A DNA stretch of 64,000 nt from an uncultured Verrucomicrobiota bacterium (GTDB taxonomy: Bacteria; Auribacterota; JABMQX01). The translations under genes and the position numbers were made by a program. The notes beneath the pieces were generated by a model. It saw only the letters and a program-made list of their open reading frames with translations, did no database searches and was not told where the DNA came from. Numbering within the stretch: position 1 is the stretch's first letter; each line of letters begins with the position of its first letter. The stretch lies in assembly GCA_964640185.1 (NCBI GenBank), contig CAZXGF010000007.1, positions 43,452-107,451 of the forward strand. The letters run 5' to 3'. Below are positions 13,575-57,840 of this stretch, in pieces.

Positions 13575-15716
13575 CTACATGCCGCCGCGCCGAAGGCCGG
13601 TGTTGCCGCCTGCGTTCGACACCGGCCAGGTGGCGCGAAACTCGTCCTGATAGAGGCCAATTTTATCAAAGGGAATCTTTTTGAACGCGGGGATTTTCCG
13701 GTAAACGATGGAATCATCTTTCAGTTGGAAATTCATCTTCGCGGCGTCCACAAACCCCGGGTCCTCGTCGGTAATGAAATTATCTGCGACCTTGATATAT
13801 TTCCTGTCCGGATCGTGCCAACTGCTCCGGTAGGACACATTGTTCACGACGACGTTGCCGAGCGGCGCCTGCGGGTGCTCCTCCAGAATGCGCGCCAGTT
13901 TCGGATACCTCATGCTCCAGGGCGGTTGCTTAATCCTGAACCGCTTGAGCGGCTCGTACATGGGCCCGCCAGGACGGAAGTGGTCCCAGGTCAACCCTCG
14001 CGTGTCGAGATGCACAGGCTGTTCGCACTCGATAAAGATGTTGTTCTGCACAATGTTGTCTCGCCCGCCCCCGATAAACGCCGACTCTCTCGTCTTGTAA
14101 AAAACGTTGCCGAAAATCTCCGTCGAGCTGGCGCAGTCGTCAAGGTAAACCACCTTTGAGCCGAAGCCCGGCCTGAAAGGAATATGATGTATGAAGTTGT
14201 ATCGCACGACGTTCCCCCGAAACGTCCAGTCACGCCCAGTGTAGAGAACCCCCGCATCGCTCGACTCGAGGACTACATCGTGGATCTCGTTGAGCTCGAT
14301 GAGGTGATCGTTGCCGTCATACCCTATCGCCTGATGGGGGGCATCGTGAATCAAGTTATGTGCGAGCCGGTGGCCGACGCCGTAGATTCTCACCGCCGGC
14401 TGATAGACCTTCTTTCGCTGCGAGTAATGATGAATGTGACAGTTCACCACATAATTCCCCGCCGGAGTCAGTGTCGAGCGGTTTCCGCCGGTCATGCGAA
14501 CGGCCGTCGAGCCCACCTCGTGAATATCACACCCGAGGACGCCGTTGTTCGTCCCGCCGTCCAAAACGACAGCATGAGAGCCTATGCAGCGGACGACGCA
14601 TCCCGCGAGGCAGTTATGTGTCCCGCCTCCCACAACGGCCCCCACGCCGCGCGTCACTTCGAGAGTCAGTCCTCGAATTGCGACGTAGGAAGTGTTGGCC
14701 AGCGTCACTAACGGCTCCTTCAAGCTGGAGCAGTATAATGTGTGCTTCCGAAAATCCTTTGGAGGCCAGAAGTACAATACGCCTTTCTTGCGGTCGAGGA
14801 ACCATTCCCCCGCCCGGTCTATCTCCTCCAAAAGGTTCAGCGCATAGAACCACTGCCCGCTTTTAATCCCGCCACCCGGAGTCGAGACGAGCGTGATTTC
14901 CCTCTTTTCCGTATCAATGCGCTCAATCCCGACGTGCTGATCCATCCAGCCGTACCACCAGAAGCCGTGCAATACAACTTCCTCGGCATTGACCCAGCGT
15001 TTCGGGCGGTCGCCGCTGTACCTGAACGTCTTGCCCTGCTTGTTTCCATCCACCAGCCGCCGCGCCGAATCCTCACCGATTTCGATGACCTTGCCGATAT
15101 GAGCCCAGCCTTTATTGGGCCAGCGCGCAAGTTGCATCCGGCTGCCGTTCCAAAACAGCTCCAGCATCGGCCCGGAAATCGAAAGCTCACCGTAATCGGT
15201 GATGCCGCGAGCCTTCAAATCCACCTGCAACACTTTGCCGCGAGCGTCCCTATCCAAACGGCTCAGAACCGCTGTGTCTTTCACCGGCTGGAGCCACGAC
15301 GGCTTTATCTCCAGCCCGCCCACGAGACGCACGTTTTCCTTCCCGTAAGCCCGATAGAGCACCGGCGCCTCTTTCGTCCCCGAATCCTCTTTGGTCAACT
15401 GAAACGTCTGCGTGCGATAGTAAACGCCGTCCCGAATCCAAACCGTAACGGCGCCCTTCAGCGGCCCGGACCGCTTCAGGCGGCGGACGGCGTCTCGCGC
15501 ACCCTCCGGGCTCCGGAAAGGTTTTCCTTTCGTCCCGGGATTGGTGTCGCTTCCATCGCTCGCGACGTAGAGCTCAACAGTTTCTGCTGCGGCCGCCGGC
15601 AGATGCGGAGCGGCAGGGGACAGCAAAGCGGACTGAGCCATTGCAGCGTAACCGGCGGGAACGAGGCACGCCGAAAACAGTAAAACCGTAACTTGCTCAC
15701 GACGGAAGAAATTCAT
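13575..15716 (-). CDS. Right-handed parallel beta-helix (DUF1565-like) secreted protein, paralog B
   Basis: 713 aa with signal peptide. N-terminus ELYVASDGSDTNPGTKGKPFRSPEGARDA. The C-terminal third is near-identical to paralog A. Confidence 0.75.
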   Translation of the reverse strand: MNFFRREQVTVLLFSACLVPAGYAAMAQSALLSPAAPHLPAAAAETVELYVASDGSDTNPGTKGKPFRSPEGARDAVRRLKRSGPLKGAVTVWIRDGVYYRTQTFQLTKEDSGTKEAPVLYRAYGKENVRLVGGLEIKPSWLQPVKDTAVLSRLDRDARGKVLQVDLKARGITDYGELSISGPMLELFWNGSRMQLARWPNKGWAHIGKVIEIGEDSARRLVDGNKQGKTFRYSGDRPKRWVNAEEVVLHGFWWYGWMDQHVGIERIDTEKREITLVSTPGGGIKSGQWFYALNLLEEIDRAGEWFLDRKKGVLYFWPPKDFRKHTLYCSSLKEPLVTLANTSYVAIRGLTLEVTRGVGAVVGGGTHNCLAGCVVRCIGSHAVVLDGGTNNGVLGCDIHEVGSTAVRMTGGNRSTLTPAGNYVVNCHIHHYSQRKKVYQPAVRIYGVGHRLAHNLIHDAPHQAIGYDGNDHLIELNEIHDVVLESSDAGVLYTGRDWTFRGNVVRYNFIHHIPFRPGFGSKVVYLDDCASSTEIFGNVFYKTRESAFIGGGRDNIVQNNIFIECEQPVHLDTRGLTWDHFRPGGPMYEPLKRFRIKQPPWSMRYPKLARILEEHPQAPLGNVVVNNVSYRSSWHDPDRKYIKVADNFITDEDPGFVDAAKMNFQLKDDSIVYRKIPAFKKIPFDKIGLYQDEFRATWPVSNAGGNTGLRRGGM
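13618..14400. repeat. ~0.78 kb near-identical direct repeat, copy 2 (3-prime part of beta-helix gene B)
   Basis: See copy 1. Identity begins at ACACCGGCCAGGTGGCGCGAAACTCGTCCTG in both copies. Confidence 0.85.
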
Positions 15717-18295: not shown

Positions 18296-18386
18296 ATTCG
18301 TGCCCTTGCGAGTTGTGTATTGTGCATGAGCGAGGCAAAGCACTCAGTTATTACTCCGAGCGCTATCCAGTTCACAGCATCCTTAG

Positions 18387-18899
18387 GGCTCCGGTTCATA
18401 AATTCGGTGACGTATTTGCTGGGACAGGATAACAGGATGGACATGATTCTTGGAATCCTGTTTTATCCTTTGCGAAATGTCCTTGGCCTTTCGCTTTACC
18501 TCAACTTCTCACGTACTGGCTTACCGGCGGCAACGAGCGGGTTAATGAGTTGTGGCTCCTGAGCCACCACAATGACCGGCTCGACCCCGCGGCACGCGGG
18601 CCTCGACGATGACCATATCTCTTTTGACCCAACCATGACTGACCCGGAAGGTCTGGAGCAACGTGGCACGGGCGTCTCGCCCGTGGTCTCGCCCGTGGAA
18701 GGTCATGGGCAGGATGCCCATGCCACGTCTTCTCCGACGATTCCTTGCCGTTCGTGCTCTTTGACCCGGCGGCCCGCCGGCCTGTGATTTACTGGATGCT
18801 TCACGTCTCCAGAACAATCCCGTTCACGCCGATGGCGTGATTATCCCGTCAAAATAGCTCCTTTCACGACACCATCATACGTCACCCGATTTGCGAATC
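18387..18899. mobile_element. MITE-like non-coding element, copy 1 (imperfect ~25-30 bp terminal inverted repeats, TA target duplication)
   Basis: Left end TA|GGGCTCCGGTTCATAAATTCGGTGACGTATTTGC. Right end ATACGTCACCCGATTTGCGAATCCATGTACT|TA. The termini are reverse complements (GGTGACGTAT / ATACGTCACC). A second copy lies at 54928..55379. This copy contains an internal fragment of the R1 hairpin. Confidence 0.6.
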
Positions 18900-18906
18900 C
18901 ATGTAC

Positions 18907-19521
18907 TTAGGCAGCGGCATAAACGACATGTTCTTCTCGAAAGTGACTTGTGACGATGTCCGGTCGGTGCCGGGTGCTGCGGAGGTAGGCCCGAACCTGC
19001 CCTATCATTTCTTTCGGGTTGTGGGGACGCTGACGGCCAACCGCATTGGTCTTGACATCTTGATTGACAAGCTCGTCCGGATTCAGTTCCGGACTGTAAG
19101 AGGGCAGGAGGAACATACGGATGCAGTCGGACTGGCGAACCAGCCGGCGCTCGAGCTCGCCGGAGCGATGGACGGGATGGTGATCCACGATGAGGAACAT
19201 CTTCCGTCTCGTATGCTTCAGTAAGCGGCGAAGGAAGCGCATCATCACCTTGGAGCTGAACCGGTCCTCGAAAACCATAAACGCCAGTTGGCCCCTGCTG
19301 GTGATGGAGGACATCATGTCACAACCAATGCGTTGACCGGCCCCAGGAATGACCGGCGTCCGACCGCGTTTCCCGTACGAGCGACCCGCTTCATCCAGCC
19401 GTTGACCGCAACGCGAGAAACTTAGAACACCCGCGCCACCACGCTGTGACTCATGTTCTGTTGCGGGACCGCCGCCGCCACCCGACGGCGGAGGCCTTCC
19501 TGCGCTTCCGGAGAAAGGCAC
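18907..19521 (-). pseudogene. IS630/Tc1-family transposase remnant (C-terminal DDE region only)
   Basis: Hallmark motif FLLPSYSPELNPDE plus LIVDHHPVH. The N-terminal HTH and first catalytic Asp are missing, and upstream sequence is replaced by the R1 repeat. Lies directly next to the MITE right end. Confidence 0.7.
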
Positions 19522-19694
19522 CGTGCATCTTTAATAATCATACATAGAACTAACCTCCTCGTCAATTATATAATGCCCCCGTTAGTAATCCCTCAGTCTC
19601 GGGCGGGACATGGGGACTTTGGGGTAAGAGTCATGCGCAAACATCAACATCCCGCGGGACGCGGGACCCCAGGTCAGGCTCTGCGCCTCACGGC

Positions 19695-19906
19695 CAAAAG
19701 AACAGCCGTCCCCCCATGTGGCATCCCGCTGGGGGCGGGACCCGTGGAAATCATGGGCAAGATGCCCATGCCACGGCAGGCGACCACGGAGTCTCTCTCA
19801 TTCTCCTCTCTGCGCCTCTGCCCCGCGTCTCGCGGGGTTACCCTCCTCCTCCCTTTTTCCCTCCGCCGCCTTGGCGGCGTATCGGCCTGAGACTGAGGCA
19901 TTACGG
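19695..19906 (+). repeat. R1 structured repeat, copy A
   Basis: Two hairpins (CCCGC-TGGGG-GCGGG and CATGGGCA-AGA-TGCCCATG), then a CT-rich tract ending GAGACTGAGGCATTAC. Homologous copies at 45040..45247 (-), 52198..52403 (+) and 56465..56640 (+). Confidence 0.8.
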
Positions 19907-19923
19907 GAGCGGGGGATTTTTTG

Positions 19924-19952
19924 TTGACACTTGAGGGGCAATGGAATATAGT
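19924..19952 (+). promoter_or_regulatory. Near-consensus sigma70-type promoter (TTGACA-17-TATAGT) upstream of tRNA-Val
   Basis: TTGACA at 19924-19929, exact 17-nt spacer, TATAGT at 19947-19952. Predicted TSS ~19959, 40 nt before the tRNA 5-prime end. Confidence 0.5.
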
Positions 19953-19998: not shown

Positions 19999-20075
19999 GG
20001 GCGATTAGCTCAGATGGTTAGAGCGTTAGCTCGACACGCTAAAGGTCACTGGTTCAAGTCCAGTATCGCCCACCA
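19999..20075 (+). tRNA. tRNA-Val (anticodon GAC), CCA encoded
   Basis: Cloverleaf by hand: acceptor GGGCGAT/ATCGCCC, D-arm GCTC/GAGC, anticodon stem TTAGC/GCTAA with loop TCGACAC, T-arm ACTGG-TTCAAGT-CCAGT. C at loop position 33 is unusual. Confidence 0.8.
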
Positions 20076-20135: not shown

Positions 20136-21899
20136 ATGTACGGGAAGGGACGTCCGATTACGATAGATTTCAATAAGAAACAGGAGCGGGATAGGTACCG
20201 CCACAGCGTTTCACATATAATGGCTCACGCGGTCAAGAGCCTCTTCCCCGATGCGAAACTGGCCATAGGTCCGCCCATCGAAGACGGCTTCTACTACGAT
20301 TTCGACCTGCCGCAGCCTCTCACACCGGACGTTCTCGGCAAGATCGAGCAGCGGATGGAGGAAATCGTAGCTCAAAACCGCCCGTTCGTGCGAGAGGAGA
20401 TGTCGCGTGAGGGGGCGACGGAGCTGTTCAAGCACCTGGACCAGCCGTACAAGGTGGAGCTCCTTGAGGACATCAGCGATAACATTGTCTCAGTCTATCG
20501 CGAGGGGGATTTCGTTGACCTGTGCCGGGGGCCGCACATGGAAAGCACCGGGCAGCTCAAGGCGTTCAAGCTGCTGAGTGTGGCGGGCTCGTACTGGCGG
20601 GGCGACGAGCGAAACAAGATGCTCCAGCGAATCTACGGCACGGCGTTTCCGGACAAAAAAATGCTGCGGGAGCATCTCCGCAAGCTCGAGTCGGCGAAGA
20701 AACGCGACCACAGAAAGCTGGGGAAGCAACTTGACCTTTACAGCATGCACGACGAAGCTGGCAGCGGGCTGGTCTATTGGCATCCTAAGGGCGCCATAAT
20801 CAGGAGAGTCATCGAAGACTTCTGGCGAGAGGAGCACCGCAAGAACGGCTACGAATTGGTCTATACGCCACACATCTTTCGGTCTGACCTTTTGAAAATC
20901 AGCGGGCACCTCGATTTTTACAGGGACAGCATGTATCCGCCCATGGATGTGGACGGAATTGACTACTACGTCAAGCCGATGAATTGTCCGGGGCACATCC
21001 TCATTTACGCCAACCGGACTCGCAGTTACCGGGAGCTTCCCATCCGCCTGGCTGAGCTGGGAACGGTTTATCGGTACGAGAGGGGAGGGACCCTTCACGG
21101 AATGCTTCGTGTGAGGGGATTCACGCAGGACGACTCGCATATCTTCTGCACCCCAGAGCAGTTGAAGGAGGAGGTCGTCGGCGTGATGAAGTTCGCGGAC
21201 TTCATGATGAAAACGTTTCACTACGACTACGCGATCTATCTGGCGACGCGGCCGGAGAAATCGGTCGGTAGCGACGAGATATGGGAGATGGCCGAGACAC
21301 GCCTGAAGGAGGCGCTCGAGGAGTTCGGAAAGGAATACGACATAGACGAGGGCGGCGGAGTTTTCTACGGCCCCAAAATTGACATCAAGGTCTATGACGC
21401 TCTCGGTCGGGAATGGCAGGGGCCCACGATTCAGGTAGATTTCAATTTCCCGGAGCGATTCAAGCTGACGTTTGTCGGTGCTGACGGCGAACATCACACG
21501 CCGGTGATGATTCACAGGGTGGTATTGGGAGCCATGGAGAGGTTCATCGGAGGGCTTATCGAACATTACGAGGGATACTTTCCTCTTTGGCTGGCCCCGG
21601 TGCAGGTGCGAATTCTCACGGTCACGGAAGCCCATGTAACCCATGCCCGCAAGATGAAGTCACAAATGGAGGAGAAGGGAATCCGTGTCGAGCTCGATGA
21701 CCGCAACGAGACCATGGCTCTGAAGATAAGGGAGTCGCAGCTCCAAAAAATACCCTATACTTTAGTTATTGGCGACAGAGAAGTAGCGGACAACACCGTC
21801 GCGGTGAGGAAGTTCAGAGAGGGTCCTCGCGGCAGCATGGGGAGCGGTGACTTCGTTCAAAAGGTTCTTGAGGAAATCGCCAGTAAGGCGAGAGGTTAG
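20136..21899 (+). CDS. thrS: Threonyl-tRNA synthetase, N-terminally short form lacking most of the TGS domain
   Basis: 587 aa. Editing-domain HxxxH (RHSVSHIMAH). Class II motifs KPMNCPGH, GFTQDDSHIF. C-terminal anticodon-binding domain. Confidence 0.95.
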   Translation: MYGKGRPITIDFNKKQERDRYRHSVSHIMAHAVKSLFPDAKLAIGPPIEDGFYYDFDLPQPLTPDVLGKIEQRMEEIVAQNRPFVREEMSREGATELFKHLDQPYKVELLEDISDNIVSVYREGDFVDLCRGPHMESTGQLKAFKLLSVAGSYWRGDERNKMLQRIYGTAFPDKKMLREHLRKLESAKKRDHRKLGKQLDLYSMHDEAGSGLVYWHPKGAIIRRVIEDFWREEHRKNGYELVYTPHIFRSDLLKISGHLDFYRDSMYPPMDVDGIDYYVKPMNCPGHILIYANRTRSYRELPIRLAELGTVYRYERGGTLHGMLRVRGFTQDDSHIFCTPEQLKEEVVGVMKFADFMMKTFHYDYAIYLATRPEKSVGSDEIWEMAETRLKEALEEFGKEYDIDEGGGVFYGPKIDIKVYDALGREWQGPTIQVDFNFPERFKLTFVGADGEHHTPVMIHRVVLGAMERFIGGLIEHYEGYFPLWLAPVQVRILTVTEAHVTHARKMKSQMEEKGIRVELDDRNETMALKIRESQLQKIPYTLVIGDREVADNTVAVRKFREGPRGSMGSGDFVQKVLEEIASKARG

Positions 21900-27357: not shown

Positions 27358-27369
27358 GCTGAGACATAT

Positions 27370-27560
27370 ACCCTACCGTGCCCGTAGCACAACGAAGAAT
27401 CTTTGAGCCAACAGTACCGAATCGGGAGCCATGATTGGGTCGCTTTTGCAAGTACGCTCAGGAAAGCATACAGCATCCTTGAGGGCACCCACTTTGACAA
27501 ACAAGCGTTCAAAGATCTCGTTGATACGGCATTAAGGTAGGGTTTTTTTATGTCCTCGGG
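27370..27560 (+). ncRNA. Candidate 6S RNA (ssrS) locus - hypothesis from synteny and end-pairing
   Basis: A 223-nt non-coding gap after zapA, with rarA and a 5-formyl-THF cyclo-ligase next. 5-prime CCCTACC(GTGCC) can pair with 3-prime (GGCAT-taa-)GGTAGGG, and a T7 run follows. Confidence 0.25.
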
Positions 27561-44595: not shown

Positions 44596-45035
44596 AATAT
44601 TGATGTGGCTCCATTTCAGTGGCGGAACTGTCCTTGGACCTAACCCGTGCCGGAATCTCGACCCCATCCCAACACTCACCTTTACGAAGAGGAGAAAACG
44701 CCGGGCCATTCGAACTGGACTCGAGGAATCTTTCGAGTCGTGACGCACATATCTCGCCCTTTCAGGGCTCATCATTCTTGAACCGGGGCCCTTTCTCAGG
44801 GCGTTGCCCTGAGCTTTATTAAGTCTGCCCTTACAGGGCGACCCGAAAGCAATCTTCAGCCCTGAAAGGGCGCAATATTTTAGCCCAGGGCAACGCCCTG
44901 GGGAAATATCACGTGGTAAAATACAAAAGCCCTGAAGGGGCGTAATAGGCTCATCCCCAATACACGGTTCGCACCAGACACACGACAGCGGACCCGCGTG
45001 CCACTGAAATGGAGCCACACCCAATAATATGGATG
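44596..45035. repeat. Cluster of nested palindromes bounded by inverted copies of TGGCTCCATTTCAGTGG
   Basis: Inverted motif copies at 44603-44628 and 45003-45030. Inside: GCCCTTTCAGGGC / AGCCCTGAAAGGGC and the perfect palindromes CAGGGCGTTGCCCTG and CAGGGCAACGCCCTG. Confidence 0.6.
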
Positions 45036-45039
45036 AGAG

Positions 45040-45247
45040 TGTAACGCCTCCGTCTGGGGCGGGTACGGAGCTGCGGGCGAGAACAAGGGAAAAGGAGGGT
45101 AACGCAAAGGCGCAGAGTCGCAGAGAGGAGCATGAGAAGGACTCTGTCGTCGCCTGCCGTAGCATGGGCATCTTGCCCATGATTCCTCCACGGGTCCCCC
45201 GCCAGACGCGGGGGATGCCGCGTGGGCGACGGCTGTTCTTTTTCACC
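45040..45247 (-). repeat. R1 structured repeat, copy D (minus orientation, upstream of the minus-strand ABC operon)
   Basis: Hairpin 1 is extended (CCCCCGC-GTCTG-GCGGGGG). Hairpin 2 is CATGGGCAAGATGCCCATG. CT-rich tract follows. Confidence 0.8.
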
Positions 45248-45793
45248 TGAAAGGCGCAGCCCGAGCCGGCGTCCCGCGTCCCGCGGGATGTTCATGCTTT
45301 CGCATTGCTCTTGCCGCAAAGTCCCCCTATCGCACCCGCAACTGAGGGATTACAAAAAGAATCTTACGCTCGGGCGAGCGCTCCCCAATGGACCGGGGGC
45401 GACCGCAGCACACGTCGGCCCCGGCTCTCACACCAGAGGGAGAAAAGAATTTTTCGCTTGGGGGCGTAATGCCTATGCGATACGATAGGTGCGTTATGCA
45501 AAGAAGCCCCATTCAAAATCTGCCGGGTCACAGCACACCCAATAGCAATTCTGTCGAGCATCTATTCCATGACGAAGAGTGGCAGTTCGGGGGGGATGGC
45601 TAAATCCGGCACACCGCTGCTACCGGGGCGTACGCCCCTGGCGGCGCCGGAGCTCGGAATGCGATTCAGTTTGTTCCGCGGCTCGTGCAAAGGGGCCGCG
45701 ACGTGTGATTGACAACCGCGCTCCGCCGCAGAAAAGAGTTAGAATGGGAAATGCTGGCGTCGAGCTCGAAGACGTGGGAAAAGGAAACGAGAC

Positions 45794-51691: not shown

Positions 51692-52197
51692 CCCTCGAGA
51701 CTCGCCGTTAGGCGCAATCTCGGTTTGTCCGAACCCTTGCTTTCTGCCTCACCACCGCCGCAACGTAAAACCGGCGGCCGACTTACATCGAAAAGATGTC
51801 CGCCGGCGAAATGCGGACTCGGCGCCCTGATTTCCTTTTCCGCGAGCGTATTTGATATGAAGCTTTATCGCCCCTTTGGTCTGTCGAAACCTCGCCCAAT
51901 CGAAAACACTTAAACACAATCTTCTGGTACTGGAATCCCATGTGAATATCTTGTTCCTGATACGAATTGGATTACTACGTTTCAGTCCCTGGAACCTGTT
52001 CGGCGTACCGAGAAACGATTGCATGTACATTTGACACAGTCCCTTTTCATTGGCGTCAGCAGAAATGGAACTACGAACCTCCGAAACTCCCAGATGGTAG
52101 CCCACGTTCGTCGCTTGTTATCGTAAGTCCCTGATTTGCAAGGGGCCGATTTTTCAGTTTGTCATTACATCGCCCTTTCAGGGCTGTACCCTTCGCG

Positions 52198-52403
52198 GCA
52201 AAAAAAGCCGCTCCCCACGTGGCATCCCGCCGGAGGCGGGACCCGTGGGAATCATGGCCAAGATGGCCATGCCACGGCAGGCGAAGACGGGTTCCCTCTC
52301 ATCCTCCTCTGTGCGACTCTGCGGCTTTTGCGTTACCCTTCTCTTCTCTTTCTCCCTCCCCCGCCGTGGCAGGGCATCCGCCCAAGACTGAGGCCATACA
52401 CGC
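52198..52403 (+). repeat. R1 structured repeat, copy B
   Basis: Hairpin 1 is CCCGCC-GGA-GGCGGG. Hairpin 2 is CATGGCCAAGATGGCCATG, a double compensatory change versus copies A and D. It is preceded by a GCCCTTTCAGGGC motif. Confidence 0.8.
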
Positions 52404-52418
52404 CCTTCGTAATTGTCT

Positions 52419-52447
52419 TTGACAAGCGCCGCACGGCGCGGTACACT
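52419..52447 (+). promoter_or_regulatory. Near-consensus sigma70-type promoter (TTGACA-17-TACACT) upstream of gatB
   Basis: TTGACA at 52419-52424, 17-nt spacer, TACACT at 52442-52447. About 95 nt before the gatB GTG. Confidence 0.5.
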
Positions 52448-52546: not shown

Positions 52547-53974
52547 GTGGAATACGAAAGCGTCATCGGACTGGAGGTCCACGCGGAACTGAAGACCGAC
52601 ACGAAGATTTTCTGCGGTTGCTCGACCGAGTTCGGCGCCGAGCCCAACACGCAGACGTGCCCGGTGTGTTTAGGTCTGCCGGGCGTTCTGCCGGTCTTGA
52701 ACGAAAAGGCGCTTCGATATACAGTGAAGGTTGGTCTGGCTCTCGGATCCGAGATTTCCTCGTTCAGTAAGTTTGACCGGAAAAACTATTTCTATCCGGA
52801 CCTGCCGAAGGACTTTCAAATCTCGCAGTACGACAAGCCGCTGTGCCGAGGGGGCGCCGTGGAGTTCTCCTGCAACGGCGAGAAGCGGAAAGTCGCGCTG
52901 ACCCGTGTGCATCTGGAGGAGGATGCCGGAAAGCTGATACATTTCCCTGACGGGGAAAGCGGCGTGGATTTCAACCGGGTCGGGATTCCTCTCCTGGAAA
53001 TCGTGAGCGAGCCGGAGATACGCTCGCCGGACGAGGCCTATTTCTATCTTCTGGAGTTGAAGCTGTTGCTGAAATACCTCGATGTCAGCGATTGCAACAT
53101 GGAGGAGGGTAGCCTGAGGTGCGACGCGAACGTGTCCGTGCGTCCAAAGGGGCAAAAGAAGCTGAGCACGCAAGCGGAAATCAAGAATATGAACAGTTTC
53201 ACCGGAGTCCGCCGGGCCCTGGCCTACGAGATCGAGCGCCAAATCGGAGTGCTGGAGGGCGGGGGGAGAATCGTTCGGGAGACGCGGCGGTGGGACCCGG
53301 ATTCGCAAAGGACAGCTTCCATGCGAAGCAAGGAATGGTCACATGATTACCGCTATTTCCCTGAGCCGGACCTCGTGCCTTTTGTCCTCGAAAAAGCCTG
53401 GATTGACGAAGTGCGCGCCACCATACAGGAGCTGCCGGAAGCTCGCAAGGGACGGTTCATGGAGCAATACGGGCTTTCGGAGTACGACGCCGGAGTCCTC
53501 ACCGCCCAGAAAGCTTTCGCCGATTATTACGAGGAATGCGCGCACCTCCATGACAATTACAAGGCGATCTGCAACTGGGTCATGGGTGGTGTCCTCCAAG
53601 AATTGAATGCGAGAAAGATTTCTATCGGAGACCTCCCGATCTCCCCGAAGATGCTGGCGAACATGGTCCGCATGATAGACGATGGTAGAATTACCAGCAA
53701 TATCGCCAAGGAGGTTTTCGCGGAAATGTCGGAAACCGGCAAGCCTCCGGACAGAATCGTCGAAGAAAAAGGGCTGTCACCGATAACGGACGCGGGGGAA
53801 ATCGAGCGGGTTGTCGAGGAGGTCATCGAAAACAACCCCAAGCCTGTCCGGGATTTCCGCTCCGGTAAAGAGAGAGTTATCGGCTTTCTCGTGGGGCAGG
53901 TGATGAAAGCTGTCGGAGGAAAAGCTGACGCCCGGTTGGTCAACAAGATATTGAGAGAAAAGCTGAAACAGTAA
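52547..53974 (+). CDS. gatB: Asp-tRNA(Asn)/Glu-tRNA(Gln) amidotransferase subunit B
   Basis: GTG start with an AGGAGGA SD. YESVIGLEVHAELKT...FDRKNYFYPDLPK. C-terminal GatB/YqeY domain. Confidence 0.95.
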   Translation: MEYESVIGLEVHAELKTDTKIFCGCSTEFGAEPNTQTCPVCLGLPGVLPVLNEKALRYTVKVGLALGSEISSFSKFDRKNYFYPDLPKDFQISQYDKPLCRGGAVEFSCNGEKRKVALTRVHLEEDAGKLIHFPDGESGVDFNRVGIPLLEIVSEPEIRSPDEAYFYLLELKLLLKYLDVSDCNMEEGSLRCDANVSVRPKGQKKLSTQAEIKNMNSFTGVRRALAYEIERQIGVLEGGGRIVRETRRWDPDSQRTASMRSKEWSHDYRYFPEPDLVPFVLEKAWIDEVRATIQELPEARKGRFMEQYGLSEYDAGVLTAQKAFADYYEECAHLHDNYKAICNWVMGGVLQELNARKISIGDLPISPKMLANMVRMIDDGRITSNIAKEVFAEMSETGKPPDRIVEEKGLSPITDAGEIERVVEEVIENNPKPVRDFRSGKERVIGFLVGQVMKAVGGKADARLVNKILREKLKQ

Positions 53975-54819: not shown

Positions 54820-54927
54820 GCTCCCATTGTCTTTGCGCAACTGTCCACTCCTCCGATAGCCCTCCGACCGACTGCCTCCCCGCACACTTTCATCTTCCCC
54901 CCGAAATATGGGATGGCCCTGCTTAAT

Positions 54928-55379
54928 GCTCCGATTCATAAGTTCGGTGACGTATTTGCCTCGACAGGATAACAGGATGGACATGATTCTTGGAATCCTG
55001 TCTATCGTTGCGAAAGGTTCTTGGCGTTTCGCTTTACCCCAACTTCTCACGTACTGGCTTACCGGTGGCAACGACTTCTGCTAACGAGTTGTATCTCCTG
55101 AGCCGCCACAACAACCTCGTTGATACACTTCCGCTCGACGATGACTGTGTGACTTTCGACTCCGCCATGGCTGTGCAGGAAGGTCTCGAACAACTTCGCC
55201 GCCAATTCCTTGCGCTTCGTCGTCTTTCACCAAGCGGCCTCTCCGGCGTGTGATTTACTGGATGCTTCACGTCTCTGGAACAATCCCGTTCACGCCGATG
55301 GCGTGATTATCCCGTCAAAATAGCTCCTTTCACCAGACCATTATACGTCACCGTATTTGCGGATCGATGTACTTAACCT
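54928..55379. mobile_element. MITE-like element, copy 2
   Basis: Left TA|ATGCTCCGATTCATAAGTTCGGTGACGTATTTGC. Right ATACGTCACCGTATTTGCGGATCGATGTACT|TA. The ends are ~85-90% identical to copy 1 and the internal region diverges. Confidence 0.6.
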
Positions 55380-56043: not shown

Positions 56044-56464
56044 GTCCGATCCTTTCACGAAGAATAGGTTAACCGCGGCTCAAACTGCGTCACGCGCACT
56101 GCCCGAAGCCTCGCCCGCGCCTTCCGCGTGAGCTGTCGTTAAACCGGTCTAACCTGTTTTCTACACGTATTCCCAGTCCTTTAGCCACTGATATTCCTGG
56201 GGCAACTTCGTCCACATCTCGTCGGTGGCCTTCTTCAGTTCGGCAGCCTCCGCGATGTCGAGCTGCCGCCACACCACAAAATCATGTCAATTCAACGTAT
56301 CACAAAGCTCACCAAAACGCCAACGGGGCCATTCACGGGGGTATGGCTCCATTTCAGTGACACGCGGGCCACCTTTCGCTCGCTTGGCGCAGGCGGCGTG
56401 TTTCCGAGGGACGAACCGGGAGGGTGACGCAAATCCCTTCCCTCACCTCCCTGTGTGCGGATAG

Positions 56465-56640
56465 GCGTCGCACGGGCGTCCCGCCCGTGAAGCATCATGA
56501 ACAAGATGCCCCTCCCACGGCAGGCGACGACGGAGTCCTTCTCATCCTCCTCTCTGCGACTCTGCGCCTTTGCGTTACCCTCCTTTTCCCTTGTTCTCTC
56601 ACGCAACTCGGTATCCGCCCGAGACTGAGGCCATACGCCG
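56465..56640 (+). repeat. R1 structured repeat, copy C (hairpins degenerate, CT tract intact)
   Basis: ...CATCATGAACAAGATGCCCCTCCCACGGCAGGCGACGACGGAGTCCTTCTCATCCTCCTCTCTGCGACTCTGCGCCTTTGCGTTACCCTCC... Flanked by TGGCTCCATTTCAGTG-type motifs. Confidence 0.7.
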
Positions 56641-56938
56641 CACCCACTTTTTTAGGGGTGTGGCTACATTTGAGTGGGTGATCTTGCCAAGTGCAACGCC
56701 ACCCCGCCATGGCGGGGCGGTCTCGAGGGCGTCTCGCCCTCGATTCTTTCTTATATCCTTTGCGTCTTCGCGTCTTTGCGAGAGGTCTCCCCCGTCCCAT
56801 TTCTCCCGCTAAGAAGCCAAGCGTCCTGTCCATCTTGTTTTTGACTTGCGGTTCTTCACTCCGAGTTCTGCGACGCGGAACAAACAAACCAAGGGCGAGT
56901 TCTCTACCACTTAAACGTAGCCGCACCCACTTTTTTAG

Positions 56939-56966
56939 TTGCGGTTTTTTTGGGACGGGCTATAAT
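56939..56966 (+). promoter_or_regulatory. Candidate promoter (TTGCGG-16-TATAAT) upstream of the DUF1559 gene
   Basis: Perfect -10 TATAAT at 56961-56966. The -35 is weaker. ~120 nt before ATG 57088. Confidence 0.4.
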
Positions 56967-57087: not shown

Positions 57088-57840
57088 ATGAAAACCCGAC
57101 ATGTCAAGGGATTCACACTCATAGAACTTCTCGTTGTCATGGCGATTCTTTCAATATTGATGGCGCTTCTGCTGCCGGCTATCCAAACCGCCAAGGAAAA
57201 GGCGAGATGGAGTCGTTGTATCTCGAACATGCGTCAGCTCGGTCAGGCGATGATGATGTACGCCGGCGACAACGACGGGCACCTGCCGGCATCGGGCTCA
57301 GAACACAACCAGGGAAGATTCGATTACGTTTGCGGTGGAACGGGGAATTCGTTCCCGCAGACGGACCCTGCCTCCATGAAAAGGATCAAGATCGAAGAAG
57401 GGACACTATGGCCTTACATGACGACCCTCCCACGGTGCGGACCCTACGGAAGCGCCACGAAAGGAATGACGGAGAAATGGTACGCCTCACCGGACAAAAA
57501 CCCGTACCTCTGTCCTTCTTCGGGACCGGTGGGAAGAAAAGCCGGATTGAGCTATTCGATGAACGCTGCTCTGGATGACAGAACCAGCGGCGGCAGCGGT
57601 ATCGGAATCCAAATATCGCGAATCAGAACCCCAAGCAGGACTATCCTGTTAGTTGACGAGAGCGAGCTGAAGCTCAACGACGGGCGCTTTGTGCCCCCCG
57701 GCGAAGCCGCCCACCTGATGATCAAGCATAACGATGGCGGCAATCTCCTCTTCTGCGACGCGAGCGTGAAGTGGGTCGCACAGGAAACGTTCATGAAAAT
57801 GATACAATCGGACTCGGGCTGCTGGGACCCCCTCCGGTGA
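57088..57840 (+). CDS. DUF1559 / prepilin-type N-terminal cleavage-methylation domain protein (Planctomycetota-typical)
   Basis: [31 protein letters not shown], then the H-X9-DG-type C-terminus. A GAGGAGG SD lies 7 nt upstream. Confidence 0.9.

Follow-up and report, generated by a model that had tools for sequence, protein, structure and literature searches.

A MITE family with ends phased to predicted sigma-70-type -35 boxes, and its probable choice of promoter-upstream target sites

Copies of the repeat R1 lie beside near-consensus promoter sequences, raising the question of whether the repeat brings promoters with it, is retained where it helps them, or lands next to promoters that were already there. 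Three hexamer pairs following R1 copies had been reported in the initial annotation of the window, by which we mean the whole 64-kb stretch of DNA analyzed here, together with the proposal of a promoter-associated or promoter-delivering element. All three pairs are present in the sequence (Table 1), and the first does lie 46 nt before tRNA-Val; the second is upstream of gatB as described, at 99 nt from the GTG start rather than the ~95 nt given. Both R1-A and R1-B had been described as immediately followed by promoters; the promoters do follow, at the end of a non-conserved linker that measures 19 nt in each case (R1 ends at 19904 and 52399). The predicted position of the element end is thus ~19 nt upstream of the -35 box, or roughly -55, and not the approximately -40 first suggested. 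The TTGCGG-N16-TATAAT site was correctly placed ahead of the DUF1559 gene, yet it lies 302 nt from R1-C with an insertion of a second miniature inverted-repeat transposable element (MITE) family, MITE2, in between. A fourth copy in the window, R1-D, had been overlooked.

Table 1. Positions of R1 copies, MITE2 copies, predicted promoters and neighboring genes in the window
Feature	Position	Strand	Remarks
R1-A	19585..19904	+	Full-length, 320 bp
R1-A left inverted repeat	19585-19600		GTAATCCCTCAGTCTC
R1-A right inverted repeat	19889-19904		GAGACTGAGGCATTAC
R1-B	52178..52399 (left boundary approximate)	+	5' side truncated or rearranged
R1-C	56456..56636 (left boundary approximate)	+	3' part only
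R1-D	45041..45353	-	Full-length, 313 bp; outside the 19-nt rule
MITE2 insertion (273 bp)	56656..56928	+	ACTTTTTTAG at 56646-56655 and 56929-56938
MITE2-D	44602..45022	-	ATATTATT at 45030-45023 and 44600-44593
Outward promoter-like site TTGACG-N17-TATGAT	19537..19565	-	Left end of R1-A
Linker of host DNA, R1-A end to -35 (19 nt)	19905..19923	+	
Predicted promoter of tRNA-Val (thrS-infC-rplT), TTGACA-N17-TATAGT	19924-19952	+	-35 at 19924-19929, -10 at 19947-19952
tRNA-Val(GAC)	19999..20075	+	46 nt downstream of the -10 box
thrS	20136-21899		After tRNA-Val(GAC)
Predicted gatB promoter, TTGACA-N17-TACACT	52419..52447	+	-35 at 52419-52424, -10 at 52442-52447
gatB	52547-53974		GTG start at 52547, 99 nt past TACACT
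Promoter-like site TTGCGG-N16-TATAAT	56939..56966	+	TTGCGG at 56939-56944, TATAAT at 56961-56966
DUF1559/prepilin-type gene	57088-57840		Downstream of TTGCGG-N16-TATAAT

The sites at 19924 and 52419 match TTGACA/TATAAT at 11 and 10 of 12 positions, respectively, both with 17-nt spacers, and are the only TTGACA-N17-TAnnnT sites on either strand of the window, in agreement with the earlier remark that such sites are rare by chance. Only five sites on both strands reach at least 10 of 12 matches, one of which is the outward TTGACG-N17-TATGAT site at the other end of R1-A, and every intergenic near-consensus promoter-like site in the window adjoins an R1 end. The TTGACG of the outward site (19565, minus strand) starts exactly 19 nt from the R1-A left end at 19585, and its TATGAT shares bases with the ATG start of a remnant IS630-type transposase gene. 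Having near-consensus hexamers that are conserved in orthologous loci, the sites at 19924 and 52419 are assigned here to predicted sigma-70-type promoters.

The terminal inverted repeats and 8-bp target-site duplications of R1 identify it, from its sequence, as a MITE, a non-autonomous and putatively non-coding DNA transposon. R1 measures 278-354 bp, apart from one 597-bp variant, and full-length copies carry a left inverted repeat, GTAAYGCCTCAGT (also given as GTANNGCCTCAGT), paired with ACTGAGGCNNTAC on the right; they start with GTAATCCCTCAGT and finish with ACTGAGGCNNTAC, and the motif of an R1-type end repeat is GTAAYGCCTCAG. When left and right ends were paired in metagenome loci, eight distinct copies spanning 292-597 bp displayed perfect 8/8-bp duplications that abut the inverted repeats directly and are unrelated in sequence to one another (TGCTCGCC, AGCGCGTC, AAAATGAA, TGCAACGG, CTCCTGAC, CCTTTTCC, CTCGTGAA, and CCCCAGGA). 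Such a duplication has not survived at R1-A (1/8 positions match); the right end of R1-B (...AAGACTGAGGCCATAC) terminates at 52399. Open reading frames across the copies are only short, of low-complexity composition, and overlapping on both strands. R1 is multi-copy and dispersed, with four copies in 64 kb and, from 45 loci detected with a conserved core pattern in one group of JGI metagenomes, ~24 distinct copies. The same pattern gave no match among 185,579 species-representative reference genomes, so R1 in this form is absent from those representatives. A scan of reference genomes with the ThrRS found a best match of only 62% identity, indicating that the host lineage is not represented among them.

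A search for pairs of R1-type ends spaced by 0.7-4 kb and bearing a matching duplication gave none in the ~425 kb examined, and we infer the transposition machinery of R1, since no transposase or autonomous element with R1 inverted repeats was found there. The only transposase near R1 within the window is a frameshifted IS630-type (Pfam DDE_3) remnant at 18907-19541 on the minus strand, directly to the left of R1-A. The IS630 family duplicates TA, and this transposase was rejected as the R1 partner given the 8-bp duplications of R1. The same neighborhood contains one member of a ~530-bp repeat pair (18382-18909 and 54922-55375; blocks 74-93% identical) located 0.7-1 kb upstream of R1-A and R1-C, and an isolated R1 hairpin fragment lies at 18703-18727 within the first of these two copies. 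Elsewhere in the window, two pairs of tandemly duplicated minus-strand genes (10560-12629/13575-15716 and 128-1444/1969-3255) form repeat families ~3040 bp and ~1850 bp apart, with one 300-nt block 99% identical between its two copies.

A check for -35/-10 matches beside other R1 copies was positive and confirmed that R1 is promoter-associated, across independent copies and at both end types. In 40 non-redundant R1 ends, with flank offsets of 0-49 and at least 5/6 matches to TTGACA required, hexamer starts accumulated at offset 19 (nine ends) and offset 20 (three ends), with one each at 18 and 17, while every remaining offset held between zero and two. Fourteen of the 40 ends thus had a -35-like hexamer at 17-20 nt (binomial P = 8e-15). 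These phased hexamers are nearly always followed by a -10 of the TA...T form; when such pairs were counted with 16-18 nt between the two elements, 11 lay at offsets 19-20 against three elsewhere (Poisson P = 3e-18). Left and right ends showed the 19-20-nt phasing alike, and two elements, R1-A and the L005 copy, are flanked on either side by outward promoters. The pattern used to find copies matches a stretch within the 3' half of R1. The copies all come from one set of related metagenomes, so that the independent events number perhaps 12-20. The arrangement was also visible relative to the duplications, as seven of the eight duplication-bearing copies have the form [8-bp duplication]-N11-TTG on one flank (P = 2e-10), four of them with a perfect TTGACA (L001, L006, L014, and L045). 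The flanks are T-rich at positions 13-15 outside the R1 ends, and the R1-A linker ends in a T-tract, ATTTTTTG, that is conserved in orthologous loci. Linkers and spacers of different copies are otherwise unrelated sequences, upholding the earlier statement that hexamers and spacers are not part of the conserved repeat. Co-oriented genes of unrelated function, including DUF1559 pseudopilins, gatB, tRNA-Val, and secreted proteins with an N-terminal signal-like segment, begin 80-200 nt downstream, an arrangement that speaks for genuine promoters.

About one-third of R1 elements break the 19-nt rule. Offsets of 11-12 nt are seen for L042 and for one of the L025 copies, another offset is 41 nt, and two further exceptions (L012 and L013) abut another MITE. 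For R1-D, the nearest promoter-like site (TTCGCA-N17-TATGAT, 44585-44557) is 25 nt away after removal of MITE2-D, which is located between R1-D and the promoter of an FtsX-like permease gene. R1-C falls in line once the MITE2 insertion and one ACTTTTTTAG copy are removed, with TTGCGG then exactly 19 nt away. In another locus (L027), a sigma-54-like GG-N10-GC sequence, TGGCACGTTCCGAGCA, occurs ~21 nt past the R1 end at 14118, about where TTGACA is usual; the locus ends shortly past it.

MITE2, a family unrelated to R1, has the inverted repeat GGGTGYGGCTNCATTTCAGTGG and 8-10-bp flanking repeats. One MITE2 element separates R1-C from its promoter and was inserted later than R1-C, which is itself enclosed in an older MITE2-type element (56339-56645, plus strand). 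The GGGTGTGGCTCCATTTCAGTGG module found after both R1-C and R1-D was considered as a sigma-54 site and rejected for misfitting spacing and -12 element; the module is the inverted repeat of MITE2. Promoter-like sites begin 10-16 nt from MITE2 ends, and in one relative (L047) a MITE2 (~905-1207) occupies the gatB promoter in the place of R1, ending 11 nt from the -35 box. This clustering of MITE2 near -35 boxes hints at a tether to a host factor shared by the two families, as opposed to two independently evolved DNA specificities. An Rfam match to Acido-Lenti-1 (44858-44902, minus strand) falls within MITE2-D, and similar GCCCTGAAAGGGC/GCCCTGGGC hairpins are found in the MITE2 of L047 and immediately to the left of R1-B (52160-52185). 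The Acido-Lenti-1 "RNA motif" may therefore, at least here, be carried by a MITE.

Comparison with orthologous loci, located via GatB and ThrS homologues, provided evidence on the age of the promoters. In four relatives with GatB 78-87% identical (L046-L049), the gatB locus retains TTGACA-N17-TA(TGC/CGG/AAC/ATG)T, with "gcgcgg" ahead of the -10 and the start-codon distance unchanged, and R1 is absent upstream of gatB in all four. The tRNA-Val/thrS loci of four relatives with ThrS 82-86% identical (L050-L053) all display TTTTTTG-TTGACA-N17, followed by TATAGT or TAAAGT. One of them (L051) has no R1 upstream of tRNA-Val and has kept the promoter, while the others contain a strongly diverged R1 in the same orientation (L050), an R1 fragment in the opposite orientation (L053), and a remnant (L052). 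R1-family insertions at this promoter occur in both orientations in different lineages. At the L045 locus, a newer R1 has inserted on the promoter side of an older R1, reusing the same 8-bp target, CCCCAGGA; one site can be hit repeatedly by R1. The L045 promoter recurs without R1 in L135, the best orthologue, which is only 78% identical; the promoter is recognizable there, but the 8-bp target is not alignable. These comparisons show that the predicted tRNA-Val, gatB, and L045-type promoters predate R1 and represent host DNA, not DNA delivered by R1. As the duplications directly abut the R1 ends, the linker, -35, spacer, and -10 are all target DNA outside the mobile unit. In L046 (1890-4428), downstream of the conserved gatB promoter come, in order, a fragment encoding 36 residues of the GatB N terminus, a toxin-antitoxin pair of the MNT/HepT type, and full gatB, which looks like an insertion with duplication of the gene 5' end.

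The inverted repeats, 8-bp duplications, and 19-20-nt phasing bear out one of the earlier suggestions, a mobile element landing near promoters, and we consider it probable that R1 comes to lie there through target-site choice, with the transposase cutting 11 bp before the -35 box. R1 would be mobilized in trans by a transposase whose 8-bp staggered cut falls about one turn of the helix (11 bp) ahead of a sigma-70-type TTGACA, leaving the R1 end 19 bp from the -35 at about -55. This position corresponds roughly to the upstream edge of the DNA under promoter-bound RNA polymerase. R1 would thereby have inserted beside the hosts' own tRNA-Val, gatB, and, originally, DUF1559-gene promoters. The phasing would then reflect a choice made during insertion and not later selection. 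Promoter-upstream sites could serve as safe havens that spare genes from disruption, given that insertion leaves both the core promoter and the proximal T-tract undamaged. The determinant may be the -35 hexamer, read directly or through bound sigma-70/RNA polymerase; that the transposase reads promoters in one of these ways (the -35 itself or docking on sigma-70/RNA polymerase) and cuts one helical turn upstream is a tentative proposal, which we would stop a little short of calling probable. The near-universal -10 and the occurrence of MITE2 at 10-16 nt lean slightly toward a host-factor tether, with neither of them settling the matter. R1-A and L005, with promoters at both ends and no duplication, may be products of recombination between two same-orientation copies at divergent promoters.

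Since all R1 copies have passed through natural selection, a retention bias is formally possible: R1 could insert at random, with selection then retaining or improving copies at the right distance from a (proto-)promoter. Class I activator sites lie near -62 in CRP-type activation, and the R1 end, at about -55 to -70, would occupy the position of such sites; centered near -62, it could bind a factor or serve as an upstream element. The few copies at other offsets (11-12 and 41 nt) also fit this explanation, as do the many 5'-truncated copies that retain the promoter-proximal end, although the latter is partly a sampling artifact due to the placement of the search pattern. We nevertheless regard both random insertion followed by selection and a factor-binding or upstream-element role of the R1 end as unlikely. 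The phasing is already seen in seven of the eight copies with intact duplications, and the promoters are older than R1 in relatives without it. Random insertion would also predict more neutral insertions elsewhere in intergenic DNA than phased ones, and such an excess was not seen. Furthermore, R1 at the orthologous tRNA-Val locus has decayed far more than the adjoining promoter and linker, which argues against a host function constraining R1.

Another possibility is that the host keeps R1 as a functional RNA or DNA structure, such as a non-coding RNA, an array of regulator-binding sites, or a terminator or insulator that shields the promoter from read-in transcription. In its favor are the GC-rich hairpins within R1, a compensatory change in one hairpin, which reads CATGGGCA/TGCCCATG in copy A and CATGGCCA/TGGCCATG in copy B, and the co-orientation of all four window copies with the downstream gene. 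This possibility appears very improbable. The RNAalifold covariation term over 20 copies was +0.15, with almost no compensatory pairs, and the structured-RNA idea was dropped for this lack of covariation. R1-A had no Rfam match at E <= 1, no hairpin plus T-run was seen at the R1 3' end, R1 is found in either orientation with respect to the promoter once copies beyond the window are included, and orthologous copies decay. The regulator-binding, DNA-structure, insulator, and terminator roles entertained in the initial annotation likewise found no support. Two further RNA ideas, a guide-RNA scaffold of the TnpB/IscB kind and a bridge RNA of the IS110 kind, were also considered and dropped, as there was no covariation and the inverted repeats and 8-bp duplications argue against both. 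At gathering thresholds, Rfam matches in the window comprised only tRNAs, 6S RNA, and Acido-Lenti-1, none of them within R1; the 6S RNA gene (RF00013, 52.4 bits) is located at 27367-27547 on the plus strand. Finally, the promoter-delivering reading, in which R1 would be a Correia-like "putative mobile promoter" with -35 and -10 in the mobile unit, has near-consensus promoters at a fixed distance from R1 in its favor, along with precedents in promoter-carrying MITEs (PMC10969869) and propagated promoter sequences (PMC3488235), but retains almost no credibility and can be taken as refuted at the level of sequence by duplications that leave the promoter outside the mobile unit and by identical promoters at empty orthologous sites, with linkers and spacers unrelated among copies.

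Target-site choice by R1 would have practical and regulatory implications. R1 ends would flag predicted strong promoters in a lineage without a cultured representative, which could be used for annotation. An insertion would push the DNA upstream of about -55, including activator sites, distal upstream-element DNA, and divergent promoters, ~320 bp away, so that R1 could rewire regulation with core promoters untouched. The targeting factor, if found, could be developed into a means of placing DNA beside promoters. The locus also illustrates that a repeat adjoining a promoter is not the same as a repeat carrying one, correcting a tempting reading.

Bacterial MITEs such as Correia/CREE, ERIC, RUP, BOX, and MITEAba12 resemble R1 in their small size, their lack of coding capacity (putative for R1), and their many intergenic copies. 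They also have terminal inverted repeats and duplicate their target sites, and they often lie upstream of genes and often nested in one another. Correia and several other MITEs alter expression by carrying -35 and -10 boxes themselves (PMC10969869), whereas R1 carries neither and sits at a fixed 19 bp from a pre-existing host -35. In "putative mobile promoters," the promoter likewise lies inside the repeat (PMC3488235); the hexamers were found outside the R1 mobile unit, in contrast to both Correia-type elements and these. A 2024 review of prokaryotic MITEs describes only a general intergenic preference and no such phasing (PMC10969869, section 3.3). According to PMC11946415 (citing Ross 2021), the IS66 family has a 20-30-bp inverted repeat starting with GTAAGCG and 8-bp direct repeats; the GTAA-initiated inverted repeat and the 8-bp duplication of R1 are reminiscent of that family. 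R1 differs in starting with GTAA(T/C/G)GCC (GTAAGACC in L014) and in being clearly inverted over 13-16 bp only. No candidate tnpA, tnpB, or tnpC gene for R1 was found, a literature search on IS66 target specificity gave no report of promoter-directed targeting, and the IS66 link of R1 is only a lead.

Our search of full-text literature on promoter- or -35-directed targeting by bacterial transposons found no precedent, which is not proof of absence. Special targets are used by IS1397 and ISKpn1 (REP sequences), class C group II introns (after terminators), and Tn7 (attTn7), which, like R1, choose non-coding and non-disruptive landmarks. What they recognize, however, is a palindromic repeat, a terminator, or a single unique site, and to our knowledge, none of these elements uses sigma-70 -35 boxes genome-wide. 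Insertions of IS5 and IS1 upstream of bgl, flhDC, glpFK, and fucAO have regulatory consequences (PMC2753651, PMC11894529) and likewise place an element upstream of a promoter, but each of them is a single event recovered under selection, at a site determined by DNA structure, and they do not amount to a base-precise phasing of a whole family to the -35. Base-precise integration upstream of sigma-70 promoters, if true, would constitute a new mode of target selection for bacterial transposons and a safe-haven strategy of a kind so far known mainly from eukaryotic retroelements. The retrotransposons Ty3, Ty1, and Dictyostelium TRE target Pol III promoters, to which they are tethered by contacts that the integrase makes with TFIIIB or with subunits of Pol III (PMC5911963). 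They resemble R1 in integrating a short, constant distance ahead of a promoter or transcription complex, in the use of a safe haven, and in the repeatedly hit sites that give rise to tandem or nested insertions. They are eukaryotic retroelements, whereas R1 is a predicted bacterial DNA transposon and not of the same class; should its transposase indeed read promoters, R1 would be a bacterial counterpart of Ty3-type promoter-directed integration.
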